DNA of 50,792 nucleotides, from positions 1 to 50,792 of the IMG/VR virus record IMGVR_UViG_3300015366_000230. One strand, given 5' to 3'. This document shows, piece after piece, positions 3,792 to 22,140 of the stretch. Under the pieces are notes generated by a model. It saw only the letters and a program-made list of their open reading frames with translations. It made no database searches and was not told the DNA's origin. A program made the position numbers and the translations under genes. Source of the DNA: a virus (lineage: Duplodnaviria; Caudoviricetes). Every line of letters begins with the position of its first letter. Within the stretch, counting starts at the first letter, position 1.

Positions 3792-4058
3792 TTAAAGAAC
3801 AGTGTAAGTGTCGTTAGCAACACCAGTAAATTTAATTGATTTAACTGGGAAAGCTAAAACATAATAAATTTGACCTGTCATAGAGCCAGTTGGAGTAACT
3901 GTATAATAGTTAGTTCCGTCAAAAGAAATAGCAATCGCCTTAGTAGAGTCGGCACTATTTAATGCAATAGAAGCTGGAATTTGAGTACCAACAACATTTA
4001 CTGTTGCAGTAGTTCCTGTCAAAGTTCCAGTAATTGGACTTCCATAATTTGTTGTCAT
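3792..4058 (-). CDS. small virion structural protein
   Basis: 88 aa beta-rich ORF between two fibre genes, with an AAGGA RBS. Confidence 0.55.
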   Translation of the reverse strand: MTTNYGSPITGTLTGTTATVNVVGTQIPASIALNSADSTKAIAISFDGTNYYTVTPTGSMTGQIYYVLAFPVKSIKFTGVANDTYTVL

Positions 4059-4068
4059 AATTTTTCCT

Positions 4069-5448
4069 TTAAGCTGTATATATTCCTGAAGTAGTAAATG
4101 TATGGATAGTAAATGTACCTGAAGTTGTTACTGTGCCTCCAGTACCACGCTGTGCGCCTGTATACCAAATAATTACAACACCTGAACCACCAACTCCAGT
4201 ATTTCTACCGCCTGAACCGCCACCAGTATTGGCTGTTCCATTTGTGCCGTTTCCGTATCCTGAATTTCCATCACTACCATTACCGCCACCACCAATACCG
4301 CCACCGCCTCCGCCATATCCTGCCGAAGCATCACTACCGCAACCGCCTCCGCCTCCGCCATAATAAGGAGTAGTTAAACCAATAGTGATCTGTACGCCTG
4401 CACCTCCACCGCCACCTGAACCTTGTGGAGTTGAACTACCATTATTTCCACCATTACCACCATTGGCAGTTGCTCCGCCACCACCGCCTAATGCAGTTGG
4501 CGAACCTGTGCTTGAGCCTCCGTTAAAGCCTTGACCACTTGTACCTGAACCACCAGAGCCGCCACCGCCTCCGCTACCGCCTGATCCACCAGAGCTACCA
4601 TTTCCAGCGCCAAAACCACCGCCTAAAGCAGTTGCTAATGTAGGTAAAACTGAATTAGAGCCTGTGCTGTAAGAGCCGCCAGCCCCAACAATAATGTTGT
4701 AAGTAGTTGAAGGAACAAAAACAGCAGAAGCATTAAAAACTACACCGCCAGCACCACCGCCACCAGTACCACCATTAGCTCCACCACCGCCACCAACCAC
4801 TAAATAACTTGCTGAATAAGCAGATGGGGCAGATGGATTTTGCAAAATAAAAAATCCATTTGATGCGCTATAAAGCAAAAGTAATGGATAACCAAAACCA
4901 GCGATATTTCCCGCTTCTAAAGCAACTCCATTTCCTTTAACAATAGGAGCTGGCGGTAAAATGGTTGACCCCATAGTAAGCTGCAAAGTTGCCGCGCCGG
5001 TATTGAGATTAGTAGATTTCAATACAAATAAAAAGCCGTCTGGAATAACTGTTAAATTTGATGTAATTTGACTTGTTAAAGCATTCGCTGTACCGCCAGC
5101 AACTCCAAAAGTATAAGTGCCAAGCTGTAATTGGTCTATTTGGATATTGTTTTCCATTGTTCCTTTAGTAGGATACATACCAAAACTATTGCCAGTCAGC
5201 CAAGTTTGAGCCGTTGTATTTTCTTGCGCTCTAACCACGGTGACGGTATCGCCTGATCTAGCTGTTACTAAAACAATTTCATAGCTAGTGCTAGAGCTGT
5301 TATAGATAGTGGCTAAAAATACTTGTCCAGAAGTTGGAGTTGGAAATAGCGAACCAGTACCCGCTTGAAGATAGATAGTGGTATCAGCGCTAGTAATCGG
5401 GCTTGCCAATGCGGATAAAGCATTATTAGCGAATTGCAAAATAGTCAT
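4069..5448 (-). CDS. second tail fibre with a C-terminal glycine-rich domain
   Basis: N-terminus paralogous to 648..3773; C-terminal GGGGG-rich domain ending IHTFTTSG. Confidence 0.75.
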   Translation of the reverse strand: MTILQFANNALSALASPITSADTTIYLQAGTGSLFPTPTSGQVFLATIYNSSSTSYEIVLVTARSGDTVTVVRAQENTTAQTWLTGNSFGMYPTKGTMENNIQIDQLQLGTYTFGVAGGTANALTSQITSNLTVIPDGFLFVLKSTNLNTGAATLQLTMGSTILPPAPIVKGNGVALEAGNIAGFGYPLLLLYSASNGFFILQNPSAPSAYSASYLVVGGGGGANGGTGGGGAGGVVFNASAVFVPSTTYNIIVGAGGSYSTGSNSVLPTLATALGGGFGAGNGSSGGSGGSGGGGGSGGSGTSGQGFNGGSSTGSPTALGGGGGATANGGNGGNNGSSTPQGSGGGGGAGVQITIGLTTPYYGGGGGGCGSDASAGYGGGGGGIGGGGNGSDGNSGYGNGTNGTANTGGGSGGRNTGVGGSGVVIIWYTGAQRGTGGTVTTSGTFTIHTFTTSGIYTA

Positions 5449-12232: not shown

Positions 12233-12505
12233 CTACAATAAAGTTTTGCTTTTTATCGCTCTAATTAAATGTCTTTGACGATATTCTGAAGCATCGTCAA
12301 ATTTACCGCCAACTTCTTTCATAAGTTCATCAAAATGCTTGTAAGTGATAAAGTCTAAGATACTATGGATGATTCCTTCACCTTCTTGCCAGTACTTTCT
12401 GTCTTGGTCAATGTCGGTAAGCCATTCTGATACCCCGTAGAGTCCAAGGATGTAAGTTCCCAATTTCGCAGCGCACCTGCCATCTCCAAAAAGGAATTCT
12501 TTAAA
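12233..12505 (-). CDS. -1 frameshift extension of the tail chaperone (GT-like)
   Basis: The -1 frame is open from about 12570 to the stop at 12233. T TTA AAG lies at 12505-12499. Confidence 0.65.
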   Translation of the reverse strand, partial: FKEFLFGDGRCAAKLGTYILGLYGVSEWLTDIDQDRKYWQEGEGIIHSILDFITYKHFDELMKEVGGKFDDASEYRQRHLIRAIKSKTLL

Positions 12506-12939
12506 TCCTTCGGTGCGACTTTGGAGATTGCTGTAAAAAACACTAGAGAGCTTAATACCTCGGCTTCTTCATCTTCACTTAGAACTTCTCTTTTTACTGC
12601 TACGTCAAAGGGAATGGTTTCCCATCCCTTTTCTGTACTTACTATCACATTAGTTAAACGAATAATTTCATTTACTAACCCAAATTTTACGCCACCAGCT
12701 CCATCCCAATTTCCCGCTTTTGTTGCTATAGACTTCAAAGCAGCGTAAGCGAGTTGGGGTGCAGATAAGGCTAAATGAGCCTGACTAATACCATCAAAAC
12801 ATTGGCTAAATACTTTGCCTAACTCTAAATAAAATTGTTCAAATACAGATCGACTAATAGAAGTGGAGTGAATGTAGATTGTTCCATTTTCATCAGTCTG
12901 CACCTGCATCACAAGGGACAGATTACGATCGATTTTCAA
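12355..12939 (-). CDS. tail assembly chaperone (G-like)
   Basis: located between tube and tape measure; contains an in-frame slippery heptamer. Confidence 0.7.
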   Translation of the reverse strand: MKIDRNLSLVMQVQTDENGTIYIHSTSISRSVFEQFYLELGKVFSQCFDGISQAHLALSAPQLAYAALKSIATKAGNWDGAGGVKFGLVNEIIRLTNVIVSTEKGWETIPFDVAVKREVLSEDEEAEVLSSLVFFTAISKVAPKDLKNSFLEMAGALRNWELTSLDSTGYQNGLPTLTKTESTGKKVKESSIVS

Positions 12940-16621: not shown

Positions 16622-17064
16622 AGAGTACCAAGTTGTTGCATGTAGGATAACGCTACGCGCCCGTATGGGTCTTTAATACGTTGCAAATCTAACAAGCTTA
16701 GATCACGCAATCCATGACCAATAGACAAGGATTCATGCGTACTAACATCGCCAGCCGCGTTTACAACGCCCGCTACAAAGTTATTAATCCCAAATTGAGC
16801 ACGTAAAGTAGCAAAATAAGTTTGCCCGGGTATGTCTTGTTGAAACTGTAGTAGTTGGCTTCCCGCCCAGTTGTACACAGTTAAAGTGTATATGTCAGCT
16901 AAAGTTGACGCAAAATCTGTTGGGACAATATCTAAAGCCACAACATACGCATAATTCCAACCCGGGTCGTTATCTGCCATTGCGAGCGTAGGTATACCCA
17001 TTACGGCTCTTGCCCACGCAATAAAACCATTTAATGAAGGTGGCGAAACAATTGGATCAGCCAT
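16606..17064 (-). CDS. head-tail adaptor (DUF4054-like)
   Basis: G.V..A.D...SL and PYGR..L motifs. Confidence 0.6.
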   Translation of the reverse strand: MADPIVSPPSLNGFIAWARAVMGIPTLAMADNDPGWNYAYVVALDIVPTDFASTLADIYTLTVYNWAGSQLLQFQQDIPGQTYFATLRAQFGINNFVAGVVNAAGDVSTHESLSIGHGLRDLSLLDLQRIKDPYGRVALSYMQQLGTLWGLT

Positions 17065-17100
17065 AGAAGCACCCTAGAAAGATTTTCTATATTCTAAATC

Positions 17101-17121
17101 AAAAAGCCCCCGAAGGGGGCT
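17101..17121 (-). terminator. Rho-independent terminator
   Basis: AGCCCCCTTCGGGGGCTTTTT after the stop of 17130..17633. Confidence 0.85.
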
Positions 17122-17129
17122 AGTTATTA

Positions 17130-17633
17130 CTACTTTCTTGGTCTACCGCGACCTTTTGGGGTTTCACCTTCGTGAATAACCTCAATTTTTTGGTCAAATT
17201 TCTCTGACTGATCGGCAGCGTTCTTTTTATCTTCCGTAATTTCAAACTCAATACCGCCTTTTTGTTTGATCCCCATTTCCTGTGCTTTCATTGAAATGAT
17301 TTGATCTTGTGCTGCGGCAGTAATACTGCGAGCTTCTTGAGCGCGATCGATGTTTTCTTGATCGGATTGAGTAATACCTGCTTCAATCGCTTCAACATTA
17401 ATTGGCTTTCCGATGCGATAACATAAGCCACCAAAGCCTTTTTTGACTTTAGTAACTTCCATCATTCCATACAATTCATGCTGTTTAATGATGGTATCCA
17501 CTTCCGGTTGGTTTTGAGATAGCTTAATTTGTGCGCCCGCGCGGATTTTATGCGAAAACGGTCTAATGTTTTCAGGCAGCATGTAAGTGAATAGAAAGTC
17601 CTGTTTACTGCAATTTGCGATAAATAATTCCAT
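17130..17633 (-). CDS. hypothetical protein downstream of the capsid gene, with a C-terminal AT-hook-like KGRGRPRK
   Basis: ORF with RBS and a basic tail. Confidence 0.6.
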   Translation of the reverse strand: MELFIANCSKQDFLFTYMLPENIRPFSHKIRAGAQIKLSQNQPEVDTIIKQHELYGMMEVTKVKKGFGGLCYRIGKPINVEAIEAGITQSDQENIDRAQEARSITAAAQDQIISMKAQEMGIKQKGGIEFEITEDKKNAADQSEKFDQKIEVIHEGETPKGRGRPRK

Positions 17634-17652
17634 TATTTTCCCCTAGTATGGG

Positions 17653-17730
17653 TGGGGCGCCGATGATGCGGGGTCTTTTGAACCCCCGGCGCCCCATAAA
17701 GAATGTTCCCAGCATCACTTGGGTTCTTAT
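17653..17730 (-). ncRNA. candidate structured RNA: two hairpins with complementary loop/bulge (kissing or pseudoknot)
   Basis: 10-bp GC stem 17653-17662/17687-17696; hairpin 17699-17728; loop GUGAUGC complements bulge GCAUCAU. Confidence 0.5.
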
Positions 17731-17736
17731 ATATTA

Positions 17737-17762
17737 ACAAAAAACCACCCCGAAGGGTGGTT
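17737..17762 (-). terminator. Rho-independent terminator after the capsid gene
   Basis: AACCACCC-TTCG-GGGTGGTT followed by a T run. Confidence 0.85.
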
Positions 17763-17780
17763 AAATCCTCACGCAGGATT

Positions 17781-18806
17781 TTAGTAGGCAGCCGAAATAA
17801 TCGTCATACCTTCTGGACGGATACCCCAACCAGAGGTGCTACGCATTGTGTAGAGGGTAGTAATACCACCGTCTGGCAATGGAGTAGGAATCTCTGTAGG
17901 TGCAGCCACGTCGCAAAGCATCAAAGATGTTGCAGTTGTATTTGGTGTCAATTCAGCAAATACGTTGGTGTTGATGCGTGAGTTTGCTTTAGGAATCTTG
18001 AGTTCTGGAGCAATCAAGATGATTGCATCAGTACCGCCGTAACCTTGACCGATGAGAGTATCATCAGCAGCAAAAGATACATCGTCACCACCTGCCCACT
18101 GAGCTACGGTTTCAACCAAGCCAGCAGCAGTTTCAACACCAGCACCGATACGTTGGAATTGTGTCAATGACACGATGCCGCCGTAAGAGATTTGTTGAAT
18201 AAAACGCTGTGGAGCAAGGAATACCAAGCGCAAAGGTTGACCAATTTGCAATGTAGTAGTTTTTAAGTTACCGATTGCGTTTAGCAAGAACTGAGCTAAT
18301 TGACCAGAATCCCATGTGCTGTAGCCAGTGTTACCGTTGCTGTCTGCACCTAAGTTGATGCGGGTTGCGCCAGCAGTATTGAGCAAGCCTTCGCCGTTGG
18401 CTGGGTTATAGCCGTAGAGAAGTGCATTACGCAATTGCTGAGCGATACCTTGACGAGCAGCTAAACGGAGAGCTTCTGGGAGTGCATAACCCCAAGCACC
18501 AGTAGCAGCTTCGTCGAAGTTGTCATACTGAGCGCGGGTTTGCAGACGATAAGTAGCAGTACTAATCATCGAAGGGATAACAGATGCGCTTGGCAACTGG
18601 TTAGCAGTCGATTGGTTAGCAGATACTTGAGTCGTCAACTGAACCTTTTTAGCGTAAACATAAAGGTCAGCCTCGCCTAAGCGTGGCATTGGATTCTCTG
18701 TTGCCAGAGTGGTAAACGCACCAGAAGCCAAGCTGTACTGCATAATCAGCTCAGGCATCATGAAGTGTGGATTTACTGTTACATATGAAGGTGCAAAACC
18801 TGACAT
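17781..18806 (-). CDS. major capsid protein
   Basis: 341 aa after scaffold and decoration genes; LLYG......GLLN motif; codon usage suggests high expression; followed by a terminator. Confidence 0.85.
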   Translation of the reverse strand: MSGFAPSYVTVNPHFMMPELIMQYSLASGAFTTLATENPMPRLGEADLYVYAKKVQLTTQVSANQSTANQLPSASVIPSMISTATYRLQTRAQYDNFDEAATGAWGYALPEALRLAARQGIAQQLRNALLYGYNPANGEGLLNTAGATRINLGADSNGNTGYSTWDSGQLAQFLLNAIGNLKTTTLQIGQPLRLVFLAPQRFIQQISYGGIVSLTQFQRIGAGVETAAGLVETVAQWAGGDDVSFAADDTLIGQGYGGTDAIILIAPELKIPKANSRINTNVFAELTPNTTATSLMLCDVAAPTEIPTPLPDGGITTLYTMRSTSGWGIRPEGMTIISAAY

Positions 18807-19490: not shown

Positions 19491-20330
19491 TTATCGCTTA
19501 ACATTTTCAGTATTAAACTTCACGACCCGATGAGTTGGGAGCTTGAAGTCACCTAACCATGCTTCCATATCACCACGGTATTCAGTGATGGTACGACCAG
19601 CTTGGTCTTTCTTGTGCAACGCGATCAATTGACCTTTTGCGATTGCGCCAGTTCCACGGGAAGCAGCCAAAGCGTCAGCGTAAACACGTTTTTCAACAAG
19701 AGCCAACATTGCGTTGTCTTTAATTGAATTTACGTTAATACTCTTCATTTCATCGCTATGAGCTTGCAAACCGCGCACCATACGCTTACGATAAGCCATT
19801 AAAGTTTCGCCTTGCAATGGGCGTGATGCAGATTTACCAAAAGCAGAATAAACAGAATCAGCTTTAGCTTGTGCATCGCACATAGCAGCTTCTTCGTCAT
19901 CTTTTTTAGCAGCTTCTTCATCGTCATCTTTACGGTCATCTTCTTCATCGTCGTCTTTTTTGAACTCCATGTGACCCGGATGTTCAACTTCGCCTTCGTC
20001 GTCTGGCTTAATTTCACCAGCTTTGCCGTGCTCTTTAGGATCAGATCCTTCTGCGTCTTTTTTAGCTTTACGCATCATGAATTTTTTAGCTTTGGCTTCA
20101 GACTCATCGTCATCTTTCTTAGCTTCTTCTTCTTCGTCGTCGTCGCATGCTTCCATGTCGTCATCTTTTTTCGCTTTAGCTTTTTTATCAGCCGCAGTTA
20201 CTAGTGGTGGCGCAGGAAGGTTTTTTTCCATTTCATCTAAACGGGACATTGTTTTGCCCAGTAAAGACATAATGGCATCTAATTTATCGCCTTGGGCATC
20301 TGCCTTTGGCTCAATCTTATTTTCAGTCAT
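19491..20330 (-). CDS. capsid scaffold protein (likely start MTENKIE at 20330)
   Basis: highly charged KKDDDEE repeats; GAGGTG RBS; overlaps the stop of the protease gene. Confidence 0.7.
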   Translation of the reverse strand: MTENKIEPKADAQGDKLDAIMSLLGKTMSRLDEMEKNLPAPPLVTAADKKAKAKKDDDMEACDDDEEEEAKKDDDESEAKAKKFMMRKAKKDAEGSDPKEHGKAGEIKPDDEGEVEHPGHMEFKKDDDEEDDRKDDDEEAAKKDDEEAAMCDAQAKADSVYSAFGKSASRPLQGETLMAYRKRMVRGLQAHSDEMKSINVNSIKDNAMLALVEKRVYADALAASRGTGAIAKGQLIALHKKDQAGRTITEYRGDMEAWLGDFKLPTHRVVKFNTENVKR

Positions 20331-22140
20331 TTTCAGACACCTCATTGTTAGTTAATAAAACTCCAGCGGCGTCGCCGCCTTTGTCCCATACTCCCTTTGA
20401 ACCCCTAGCTTTCGTAACGATTGCTATGTGATCCAGCAGGAATGGCACACCCTCAATCAAGAGTGGCTCGCCATTCTCGGTTGTAAGTGTAATGTTACCA
20501 GCAGTATTATCAAATACAACTGCTGGGGAAGTTGATACCTCACCTTCCAAAATTTCTTTAATTGCATCTTGGTCATAGATTTTTGCAATACCCCAGACTT
20601 CATCACCTTTAATGTAAGGTAGCAAAACGGAACCAACGGCACGGTTTTTAAATTCTTCTGTTGTTAATACTTGAGTTTCAGGGTGATCCATAATCACCAT
20701 TAAGCCATTACAGCGTTGTAAAAACTCGTTGTTTAAGTACAAAGATGGATCGCGCCAAACGTGTTCACCAATGCTTGAACGGAATGCCAAACCTGTACCT
20801 GTAATGCGAATTGCTAACAAAGCAATATTGGCATACATCTGTGGGCTGGCTAATAAATCTTCAGAAATCAGTTTAGCTACGTCAGTTTCGGTTTTAGCCA
20901 TAGCAATTTTGAACGCATTTTCTAAGCCCGGGTGAAGTGGCATCGGAGGCACCGTTGGACTACACCAATCGGAACCCGAAGATTCGTAGTTAAGCTTTAC
21001 TTCTTCTTTTACAAAGTTGTGAGCAACGTAATAGCAAAATTGTCCATCATCATAAAGAACTTCTAAATCGCCTTTATAATCGATGCCCGTTTCTTCTTTA
21101 CATTCACGGCGAGCGCATTCTTCAAGGGTTTCATCGCCTTTTTGATGTCCGCCGGGGATACACCAAGTACCGGGATAATCCCCACCACCCATACCTCTGC
21201 GAATCATTAAAACTTCTTCGTTAGGAGTGATAAACATAATTCCCGCAGCTCTACCTTGAGCGCCACCCATATTATCTTCAGGCTTTACTTCTTTTGGTGG
21301 TTCTGGTACTAATGCTGCGTTTTGTTCAATTGGCTCGTTTTCGGCATCTGGTACGCAATTCGGTACGCTTTTTCCGTCTTTTTCTTTCATACCATATTGG
21401 GTATAACCTTCCCAACATGGATCATCATCTGGAATAGCTTGTGCATATTCAATTAATGCGTCGCACATTTCTTCTAAATGGCTTTGCGCTTCATCAGCAT
21501 CGCATTTCCATTTTCGCAATGACTTATTGATTCTTGAATCAGGATCGTGAGCCGTCTTTTCAGAAGTAAGTTTGGCTTTCATGCCCTTCATTCGAGCGCA
21601 AAATGATTCTTTTCTTGACCCACCTTTAGGCTGAGGGGCTTTTAAATGCGCGCCATGTTCTTTGTTGTAAGATTCACGACCTTTTTCATTTAAACCACCA
21701 TTTTTGTTTTTGCCTTCTTTGGTCTGCCAAGCTTCAGAATCTTCAACACCAAAACGCGGTACGACTTCCTCATCGCAATCGTCGTCTTGTTTCATGGATT
21801 TGACATGTTGAGCAACTTGATAAAGTTTTTCGCCAATGTCTTTAATTTGCAATTTGCGTAGTTCGTGGCTTAATTCGCCTTTGCGAACCATGATATTGCT
21901 ATCAGTTTCAAACTCTGTTGGAGCTAAAAGTACAGGTGCAGATACCAAAGAATCTTCTTTTAAGGCTTTTACTTCCATTTCTTTTAATAAAAGTTCATTA
22001 AGCCACTCAAGATTTTCAGCTTCGCTGTCATCTTTGTGTTTTACAAATTTTTCGCCAACAGATTGTGGAATACCAATATTAGAATGCCCTGCGGCAGCAG
22101 CGTACATCGCTTTTCTTTGGTTTTCCGACTTAAATGGCAT
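20323..22140 (-). CDS. multidomain head protein: small N-terminal modules + NUDIX hydrolase + DUF2213-like prohead protease
   Basis: Nudix box GGHQKGDETLEECARRECKEETG; DUF2213-like R.P...DHP...DHIAIV region; DUF6321-like AW...EGK...GGLN.KGR...SFCARM module. Confidence 0.75.
   Translation of the reverse strand: MPFKSENQRKAMYAAAAGHSNIGIPQSVGEKFVKHKDDSEAENLEWLNELLLKEMEVKALKEDSLVSAPVLLAPTEFETDSNIMVRKGELSHELRKLQIKDIGEKLYQVAQHVKSMKQDDDCDEEVVPRFGVEDSEAWQTKEGKNKNGGLNEKGRESYNKEHGAHLKAPQPKGGSRKESFCARMKGMKAKLTSEKTAHDPDSRINKSLRKWKCDADEAQSHLEEMCDALIEYAQAIPDDDPCWEGYTQYGMKEKDGKSVPNCVPDAENEPIEQNAALVPEPPKEVKPEDNMGGAQGRAAGIMFITPNEEVLMIRRGMGGGDYPGTWCIPGGHQKGDETLEECARRECKEETGIDYKGDLEVLYDDGQFCYYVAHNFVKEEVKLNYESSGSDWCSPTVPPMPLHPGLENAFKIAMAKTETDVAKLISEDLLASPQMYANIALLAIRITGTGLAFRSSIGEHVWRDPSLYLNNEFLQRCNGLMVIMDHPETQVLTTEEFKNRAVGSVLLPYIKGDEVWGIAKIYDQDAIKEILEGEVSTSPAVVFDNTAGNITLTTENGEPLLIEGVPFLLDHIAIVTKARGSKGVWDKGGDAAGVLLTNNEVSEND

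Follow-up and report, generated by a model that had tools for sequence, protein, structure and literature searches.

Pseudoknots in the mRNAs of T4 gene 32, E. coli rpsO (S15) and the alpha operon (S4) are autogenous translational operators. The pRNA of phi29-like podoviruses is a separate transcript of roughly 120-174 nt whose pairing through 4-nt loops is intermolecular, and it constitutes a family in Rfam. Among HDV-like ribozymes a P1.1 helix is also expected. Minimal HDV-like (theta) ribozymes occur in phages, and their defining residue is a catalytic C at the first position of J4/2, with a P4 that is short in the minimal forms (PMC10879173). For phage leaders, the IMG/VR csRNA catalogue of Fremin et al. 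2023 contains hundreds of covarying candidates at most 25 nt upstream of phage genes, includes pseudoknot-type leaders of GP32, and restates the gene 32 case (PMC10690425).

Here we describe an RNA element in the window, a complete IMG/VR virus record of 50,792 bp whose virion module lies on the minus strand, and in its relatives. Like the gene 32, rpsO and S4 leaders, the element is a 5' leader pseudoknot, apparently cis-acting, near the ribosome-binding site of a single gene; the gene 32 product binds nucleic acid, as the product of the gene described here putatively does. Unlike them, it is a double pseudoknot with a loop-to-bulge helix, has no sequence similarity to those leaders, and precedes a gene of the virion module. 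With the HDV and theta ribozymes it shares the nested double-pseudoknot order, a 7-bp first helix starting with G.U, and an occurrence in phage genomes, whereas it is without P4, P1.1, J4/2 and the catalytic cytosine, its P3 is of variable length, an extra hairpin (H1) encloses the 5' strand, and it stands before an ORF rather than after a tRNA. phi29 pRNA is likewise a phage RNA with a hairpin loop complementary to a bulge-type loop of the same sequence; our element, however, is an mRNA leader with a 7-bp helix and a geometry that fits intramolecular pairing.

No match to Rfam 15 was found in the whole window at gathering thresholds, and a search of 17560-17860 at E up to 10 gave only chance-level rows (best 15.4 bits against a gathering score of 60), in agreement with the first-pass annotation, which had recognized no named family. 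A blastn search of the element against 50,697 phage records returned no match, and literature searches returned only general catalogues. The csRNA catalogue shares the IMG/VR data source with our element. Queries of its searchable supplement files with five contig ids or four sequence strings did not find the element (PMC10690425), and a prior listing there under a DNAVirus_ number is possible. We regard the element as a phage mRNA-leader pseudoknot outside Rfam 15, with solid evidence for its structure and a function that we propose.

Architecture of the element and its locus

In minus-strand order, the capsid gene is followed by a small hairpin, an intrinsic terminator, the extended -10-like sequence TGTTAATAT, the element, a Shine-Dalgarno sequence GGGGA, and the start of a 167-aa ORF (Table 1). 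The element (17641-17723, minus strand) spans roughly 85 nt and forms the leader of that ORF. The window capsid is 51-53% identical to the annotated major capsid protein of Pantoea phage PdC23 and to homologues in Rac-SA53 and others. A hairpin resembling the one that directly follows the capsid stop codon in the window recurs in many relatives. Elsewhere in the head module, a 605-aa ORF (20323-22140, minus strand) matches phrog families named NUDIX hydrolase, head maturation protease, and many of unknown function, mirroring the 'NUDIX hydrolase' annotated beside the head genes of PdC23.

Table 1. Features of the element and of the flanking genes in the window.
Feature	Coordinates	Strand	Properties
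Major capsid protein gene, upstream neighbour	17781..18806	-	phrog_6671 (E 2e-139), phrog_264 major head protein
Small hairpin AAUCCU-gcgug-AGGAUU	17763..17780	-	Directly 3' of capsid stop codon; in MFE fold
Intrinsic terminator of capsid transcript	17737..17762	-	8-bp stem and T-run (17743-17762 plus T-run); terminator scan, fold
Promoter-like extended -10, TGT TAATAT	17731..17739	-	Ends 7 nt before H1 stem; consensus match only
H1 5' strand CCCA	17720..17723	-	Pairs with 17708-17711; first alignment, 4/4 pairs covary, 100% of cells paired
Unpaired A	17719	-	First nt of 8-nt H1 loop (A+GUGAUGC, 17719-17712)
PK 5' strand GUGAUGC	17712..17718	-	In H1 loop; pairs with 17663-17669; 100% and 99.7% of cells paired
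H1 3' strand UGGG	17708..17711	-	RNAfold, alignment
U-rich single-stranded linker AACAUUCUUUA	17697..17707	-	7-12 nt, mode 10, in 72 copies
P2 5' strand UGGGGCGCCG	17687..17696	-	Pairs with 17653-17662; 10/10 pairs covary, 96.6-96.9% of cells paired (96.9% in first alignment), many G.U
P3 hairpin GGGGU-UCAAAAG-ACCCC	17670..17686	-	A-rich loop; 5/5 pairs covary, 96.8-97.4% of cells paired (97.4% in first alignment)
PK 3' strand = bulge GCAUCAU	17663..17669	-	0 nt to P3, 0 nt to P2
P2 3' strand CGGCGCCCCA	17653..17662	-	First C pairs with last G of 5' strand
CCC-AUACUA-GGG mini-hairpin	17639..17652	-	Flush with P2; GGG is part of Shine-Dalgarno GGGGA
167-aa virion-module protein gene, function unknown, candidate regulated gene	17130..17633	-	phrog_6737
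Second intrinsic terminator	17100..17121 (strong; scan 17105-17121)	-	3' of 167-aa gene; terminator scan

All of the parts listed in the first-pass annotation (the H1 core, P2, P3 and the bulge) were recovered in place in the minus-strand sequence. Folding of a 91-nt stretch with RNAfold gave the identical nested helices at -36.2 kcal/mol (z = -3.29; 1 of 200 shuffles as good). The opposite strand's fold is about equally stable, so folding energy alone is no guide to the strand. P3, with strands GGGGU (17686-17682) and ACCCC (17674-17670), is enclosed by the 10-bp P2, which ends 19 nt ahead of the start codon at 17633, close to the distance of about 20 nt noted before. The element had also been described as GC-rich, and its G+C content is indeed 56% versus 42% for the genome, with the P2-P3 portion at 70.5%, a value matched by 0.09% of 44-nt windows.

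The covariance model built for the element identified a single copy in the window (111.5 bits, E 9e-30). At 12885-12934 on the minus strand, a hairpin with the same UGUGAUGC loop (12900-12920) lies just 5' of an in-frame AUG, which either starts ORF 12355-12939 or is internal to it; considered as a second copy it scored 12 bits (E 0.47), with no GCAUCAU partner nearby, and we treated it as a chance occurrence. Other identities were set aside as well. ARAGORN found no tRNA or tmRNA and no CCA follows the 3' strand, which does not fit a tRNA-like or RNase P minihelix; the variable P3 and its A-rich loops do not correspond to a 12-bp acceptor-T stack with a T-loop, and the mascRNA model scored 14.6 bits against a threshold of 42.5. 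The element is not itself an intrinsic terminator, as P2 is followed by CCCAUACUAGGGG with no U-tract, and the terminator scan lists none there.

Covariation among freshwater relatives

To define relatives through the capsid, we retained the best 80 of 141 IMG/VR relatives (87-99% identity). The element lies directly 5' of a homologue of the 167-aa gene in 76 of these best 80 of 141 capsid-linked loci, representing 45 distinct sequences. Three of the remaining four (L030, L047 and L057) end before or inside the element, and L043 alone is intact and without it. The covariance model matched 77 of the 80 capsid-linked viral loci (78 counting the window) and none in three cultured relatives. A second set, assembled through the downstream protein, comprised 80 of 125 metagenome relatives together with two MAG contigs, and the model matched all 82 of these gene-linked loci, one of them cut by a contig end. 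Because many of the metagenome and IMG/VR loci are the same contigs, our counts use distinct sequences, of which the lake viral and metagenome contigs provided 74 in total, 72 of them full length.

The loop-bulge helix was scored as a pseudoknot in the pairing alignments. Standard pairs accounted for 92.0% of 1,570 cells in the first alignment, compared with 76.3% in shuffles, and for 91.0% of cells in the second, compared with 73.9% in shuffles, none of 500 being as good. Changes on both sides were present at 28 of the 34 pairs in the first alignment, where none of 500 shuffles equalled any observed measure, and sliding the partners by 1-3 columns reduced pairing to 41-52%. Every position of H1 (upper stem), P2 and P3 covaries, with 97-100% of cells paired; this extends to the closing C-G pair of P2, which is U-A or A-U in L060, L242 and L190. 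The element is a genuine conserved structured RNA, far beyond chance. Cells with G.U outnumber those with A.C by 116:29 and 155:35, an excess which places the fold on the sense strand of the gene. The first-pass annotation had held that the G-U pair of the loop-bulge helix works only on the sense strand; that strand is favoured, but by pairs throughout the element, so that this pair is not its sole marker.

The loop-bulge helix is paired in 100% of cells in the first set and 99.7% in the second, and its sequence is nearly fixed. Besides the majority version, GUGAUGC/GCAUCAU, there are compensatory versions GUCAAGC/GCUUGAU (L046, L050, L218, L254), GUCAUGC/GCAUGAU (L051) and GUGAAGC/GCUUCAU (L062), and in the L070-L076 clade GUGAUGC/GCAUCAC converts the G.U to G-C. 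L234 (GUGAAGC/GCAUCAU) is the single uncompensated copy. Five versions pair fully. The three with changes in both strands fall at separate places in a maximum-likelihood tree built from the downstream protein, indicating at least three independent compensatory events in addition to the one-sided G.U to G-C change. The 7-nt complementarity first seen in the window thus withstood a check for covariation in the post-capsid region of relatives, with compensatory changes in at least three lineages.

The geometry around this helix is invariant. In all 72 copies the H1 loop consists of 1 free nucleotide, 7 pairing nucleotides and none after them; P2 has 10-11 bp in 66 of the 72, and the bulge joins P3 and P2 without a spare nucleotide. 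P3 varies more, with a stem of 4-12 bp and A-rich loops of 3-29 nt (72 copies; CAAAA is the commonest). No unpaired nucleotide remains where P2, P3 and the loop-bulge helix come together, and the junctions round the tertiary helix measure 0-1 nt. H1 and the loop-bulge helix, stems of 4 and 7 bp with a 1-nt loop, stacked via a continuous strand, have the classical geometry of an H-type pseudoknot, which favours intramolecular pairing, and the strand order PK5'-P2-P3-PK3'-P2' makes the whole fold a double pseudoknot. By the evidence of covariation, then, the fold is a double pseudoknot on the sense strand. The loop-bulge sequence is conserved far beyond what pairing needs, while the other helices drift freely.

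Support was uneven at the two margins of the element. The hairpin H1 had been drawn with both CCCA/UGGG and an outer AAGAA/UUCUU pairing; the inner part is fully paired and covarying, but the outer part (17724-17728 with the linker) is weak, at only 60-65% of cells paired, and it probably lies at or before the transcription start. At the other end, the CCC/GGG mini-helix, of only 3 bp and with 3-6 nt between its strands, is paired in 81-82% of cells with almost no covariation, and it is weak or absent in divergent copies (L044 type, L060, L181).

Association with the downstream gene

The carriers are uncultured tailed phages of one freshwater clade. Each genome carries one copy of the element, and the distance from P2 to the start codon is 15-23 nt, mostly 18-19 (72 copies), always before the same gene. 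Loci with a complete gene carry the element in 155 of 157 cases, the exceptions being L043, which lacks it, and L204, at a contig end. The element stays beside the gene despite an extra ORF after the capsid gene (L044/L048/L053/L067, L089 type) or a missing terminator, the capsid terminator being absent from some element-carrying relatives (L039-L042, L054, L089 type). It therefore tracks the downstream gene rather than the capsid gene or its terminator. A pattern scan of all viral contigs identified 17 new strings; 11 were true copies, all before the same gene, and the other 6 were chance matches in G+C-rich DNA beside unrelated ORFs.

The extra ORF, which separates the capsid gene from the promoter-element-gene cassette, was observed in L044, L048, L053 and L067 (at about 4030-4400) and in L089, L095, L121 and L129; the end of its product is Ala/Pro-rich in L044, L048 and L053. 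We also considered an upstream ORF starting from an AUG at the base of P2, and rejected it because that AUG is not conserved: several copies have UUUGG, AAAGG or UUUGC in its place.

Six cultured relatives (PdC23, Rac-SA53, Shewanella QDWS, Actinobacillus pPE4, Yersinia YenM_29.18 and Klebsiella Chronis) are without the element. In these phages nothing but a terminator or a short spacer precedes the gene, and the covariance model, with filters off, scored at most 6.5 bits there. Their protein is 32-39% identical to the 167-aa protein (Shewanella QDWS, 29% over 60% of the query). As it is missing from all six cultured relatives checked, the element is an addition of the freshwater clade. In L043 the same gene is preceded, at positions 4030-4152, by a terminator, a sigma-70-like TTGTCT-17-TAGAGT and a short leader without structure; among relatives of this gene, only L043's own contig was without the element, and the five other scanned loci carry it. 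Since L043 and the six cultured relatives hold the gene without the element, the element is dispensable for the gene. The element, the gene and the end of the capsid gene are also present on the MAG contigs L180 and L181, labelled Mucilaginibacter and Oxalobacteraceae; both are probably phage contigs that were binned, and hence weak host hints at best.

Promoter-like sequences precede most copies. Forty-one of the 72 distinct leaders have TGn followed by TANNNT (at least 4/6), 7-9 nt before H1 in the listed cases. In another 16 the -10-like hexamer lacks the TG, and the remaining 15 show a poor hexamer or none, so that a -10-like hexamer of either type is present in 57 of 72 copies. In leaders of the L077/L105 type, H1 follows the terminator without a gap. 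Together with the 15 copies that have no usable -10, this type indicates that a 5'-terminal position of the element is not universal. No terminator was found between the element and the ORF, either in the scan of the window or in the inspected leaders of relatives. The second terminator, beyond the gene, was found only in some relatives and bears no relation to the presence of the element. At 17064-17129 (minus strand) this terminator is followed by the conserved TTTAGAATATAG, with a -10-like TAGAAT, ahead of the next gene; relatives without the second terminator retain TACAAT, TAAAAT or TAGAAT at that position. Retention with or without the terminator suggests that several virion-module genes may own -10-only promoters.

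The 167-aa protein gave no Pfam match and no PDB sequence match, and Foldseek detected no PDB structure similar to its model at E up to 0.001. A wide structural alignment (VIA-align) reached a best Z of 4.8 over the long helix only, a BFVD search returned a single uncharacterised phage protein (1.6e-5) together with weak rows named HeH/LEM, and an ESM Atlas search returned unnamed clusters only. In the AF2 model (pLDDT 72) the N-domain is beta-rich, a long helix spans 30 residues, and the basic tail is disordered. This C-terminal tail, KGRGRPRK (17130-17160, minus strand), resembles RGRP, which we take to be the AT-hook core; RGRPRK is kept across the freshwater clade, and is not found in the enterobacterial and Shewanella relatives. 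The L043 protein retains an RGRPSKR tail without the element, so the basic tail does not track the element.

Candidate roles of the element

We tentatively favour, as the most likely role, a cis-acting translation control module for one gene, working either as a protein operator or as a fixed tuning device. This preference follows from the fixed start-codon distance, the flush Shine-Dalgarno helix and the conserved tertiary-helix sequence. The element would act in cis, post-transcriptionally, on the phrog_6737-family gene. The rigid fold stops 15-23 nt short of the start codon and abuts a CCC...GGG mini-helix that takes in part of the Shine-Dalgarno sequence. It would thus border the ribosome-binding site on the 5' side and could there set or gate translation initiation. 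What operators of this kind have, a structured leader at the ribosome-binding site of the gene, is present here, with the Shine-Dalgarno sequence partly in a flush 3-bp helix. In the version that we prefer, the loop-bulge helix would be the recognition site of a protein, and thus a translational operator: that the sequence of the tertiary helix is conserved while the other helices drift suggests protein recognition, although its strong conservation could instead reflect tertiary contacts. The candidate binder is the gene's own putative nucleic-acid-binding product, as in the T4 gene 32 and rpsO/S15 leaders; possibly it binds the leader, the AT-hook-like tail being the one feature that points to it.

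The first-pass annotation had inferred a cis-regulatory switch. The element does lie in cis, in the 5' leader of the gene; the switch itself was not borne out, as the helices are all long, conserved and rich in G+C, no conserved alternative pairing was found, and there are almost no conserved unpaired nucleotides from which a ligand pocket could be built. Where a promoter-like -10 lies 7-9 nt upstream, the transcript would begin with the fold itself, which could shield it from 5'-end-dependent decay. Translation control and such 5'-end protection can coexist.

Protection might also be the entire role, a possibility to which we give some weight while considering it clearly less probable than translation control. 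The element would then be a constitutive stabiliser or insulator of the mRNA with no regulatory input, its pseudoknot capping the 5' end of the gene's own transcript, or of a cleaved read-through capsid mRNA, and blocking 5'-end-dependent attack by RNase E/RppH or a 5' exonuclease. The fold is very stable and gives no sign of switching, the -10-like hexamers in 57 of 72 copies would start transcription at the base of H1, and weak AAGAA/UUCUU pairing is expected if the 5' half of it is untranscribed; the element-less L043, too, has a promoter-like sequence before the gene. Yet a simple 5' hairpin would do for this purpose, 15 of 72 copies are without a -10-like hexamer, and the near-invariant sequence of the tertiary helix, the 15-23 nt spacing and the flush CCC/GGG helix would be left unexplained. 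It is unlikely, in our estimate, that the element represents a protein-independent class of RNA, whether a very small ribozyme or processing signal of HDV-like topology that would generate the 5' end of the mRNA, or a bacterial counterpart of the nuclease-resistant viral RNAs that would block decay from that end. For a self-cleaving or nuclease-guiding processing site of the HDV-like kind, in which a cut 5' of the G.U pair would split the mRNA from the capsid transcript, we see only a slight chance. The order of strands is that of a nested double pseudoknot with a 7-bp tertiary helix, which opens with a G.U pair in 44 of 46 and 54 of 57 distinct rows; a G.U pair also marks the HDV cleavage site. 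The rest of the architecture argues otherwise: P4 is missing, there are 0 nt where J1/4 and J4/2 belong and there is no space for P1.1, P3 has 4-12 bp instead of 3, and the C after the tertiary helix belongs to the closing P2 pair that covaries to U-A or A-U (L060, L242, L190) rather than being a free catalytic C. The Rfam search at E up to 10 gave no HDV-type match, and hardly any conserved unpaired nucleotides are available for another active site.

Similarly slight is the chance of processive antitermination like that of put in phage HK022, by which the RNA would modify its polymerase for read-through past the 167-aa gene into the tail genes. Two structured modules right after a likely promoter, and the strong terminator (17105-17121) after the gene in the window, are what such a system would call for; however, most lineages with the element do not have the second terminator, whereas the element-less L043 does, and the fixed distance to the start codon would have no explanation. 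A riboswitch, or a switch sensing a ligand, an ion or temperature that opens and closes the ribosome-binding site, is about as improbable. It would account for a pseudoknotted 5' leader beside a Shine-Dalgarno sequence that is partly in a helix, but the conserved nucleotides are almost all paired, with junctions of 0-1 nt and no obvious pocket, the gene belongs to the virion module and not to metabolism or transport, and no Rfam riboswitch matched. Nor was any conserved, cognate-specific alternative pairing found: between linker and ribosome-binding site, cognate pairs averaged no advantage (-3.0 versus -3.15 kcal/mol for non-cognate pairs; 4214 of 5000 permutations as good), and between the P3 loop and the ribosome-binding site the cognate partners were again no better than non-cognate ones. 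Least probable of all is an RNA acting in trans or assembling with itself, in which the loop-bulge pairing would join separate molecules, as in phi29 pRNA-like rings or dimers, or engage other phage mRNAs. Complementarity of loop and bulge makes head-to-tail pairing possible in principle, and the window holds 11 GTGATGC sites where 4.9 +/- 2.1 are expected, a count reached in 0 of 100 dinucleotide shuffles, which ignore codon bias. The other GTGATGC sites are mostly in coding sequence and without structure, so codon bias may explain the excess, and GCATCATC is not enriched (2 versus 1.4 expected). The loop, with 1 nt before and 0 nt after its 7 bp, fits an intramolecular H-type pseudoknot, no terminator was seen before the ORF in the window or in the inspected leaders, the element always abuts the one start codon in cis, and the Rfam scans gave no pRNA match; the analogy with phi29 pRNA that had been offered for the window is, on these grounds, not supported.

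Very little is known of gene regulation in uncultured freshwater phages. The element brings to this field covariation of textbook quality, the tertiary loop-bulge helix included, and a link to a single gene that holds in more than 150 lake-metagenome loci. The element offers a new family for Rfam-type curation and a compact double pseudoknot for structural work. If it were catalytic or nuclease-resistant, it would constitute a new class of RNA. As a translation control module, it is a candidate for post-transcriptional control inside the phage virion module, possibly forming an autoregulatory pair with the AT-hook-tailed protein.
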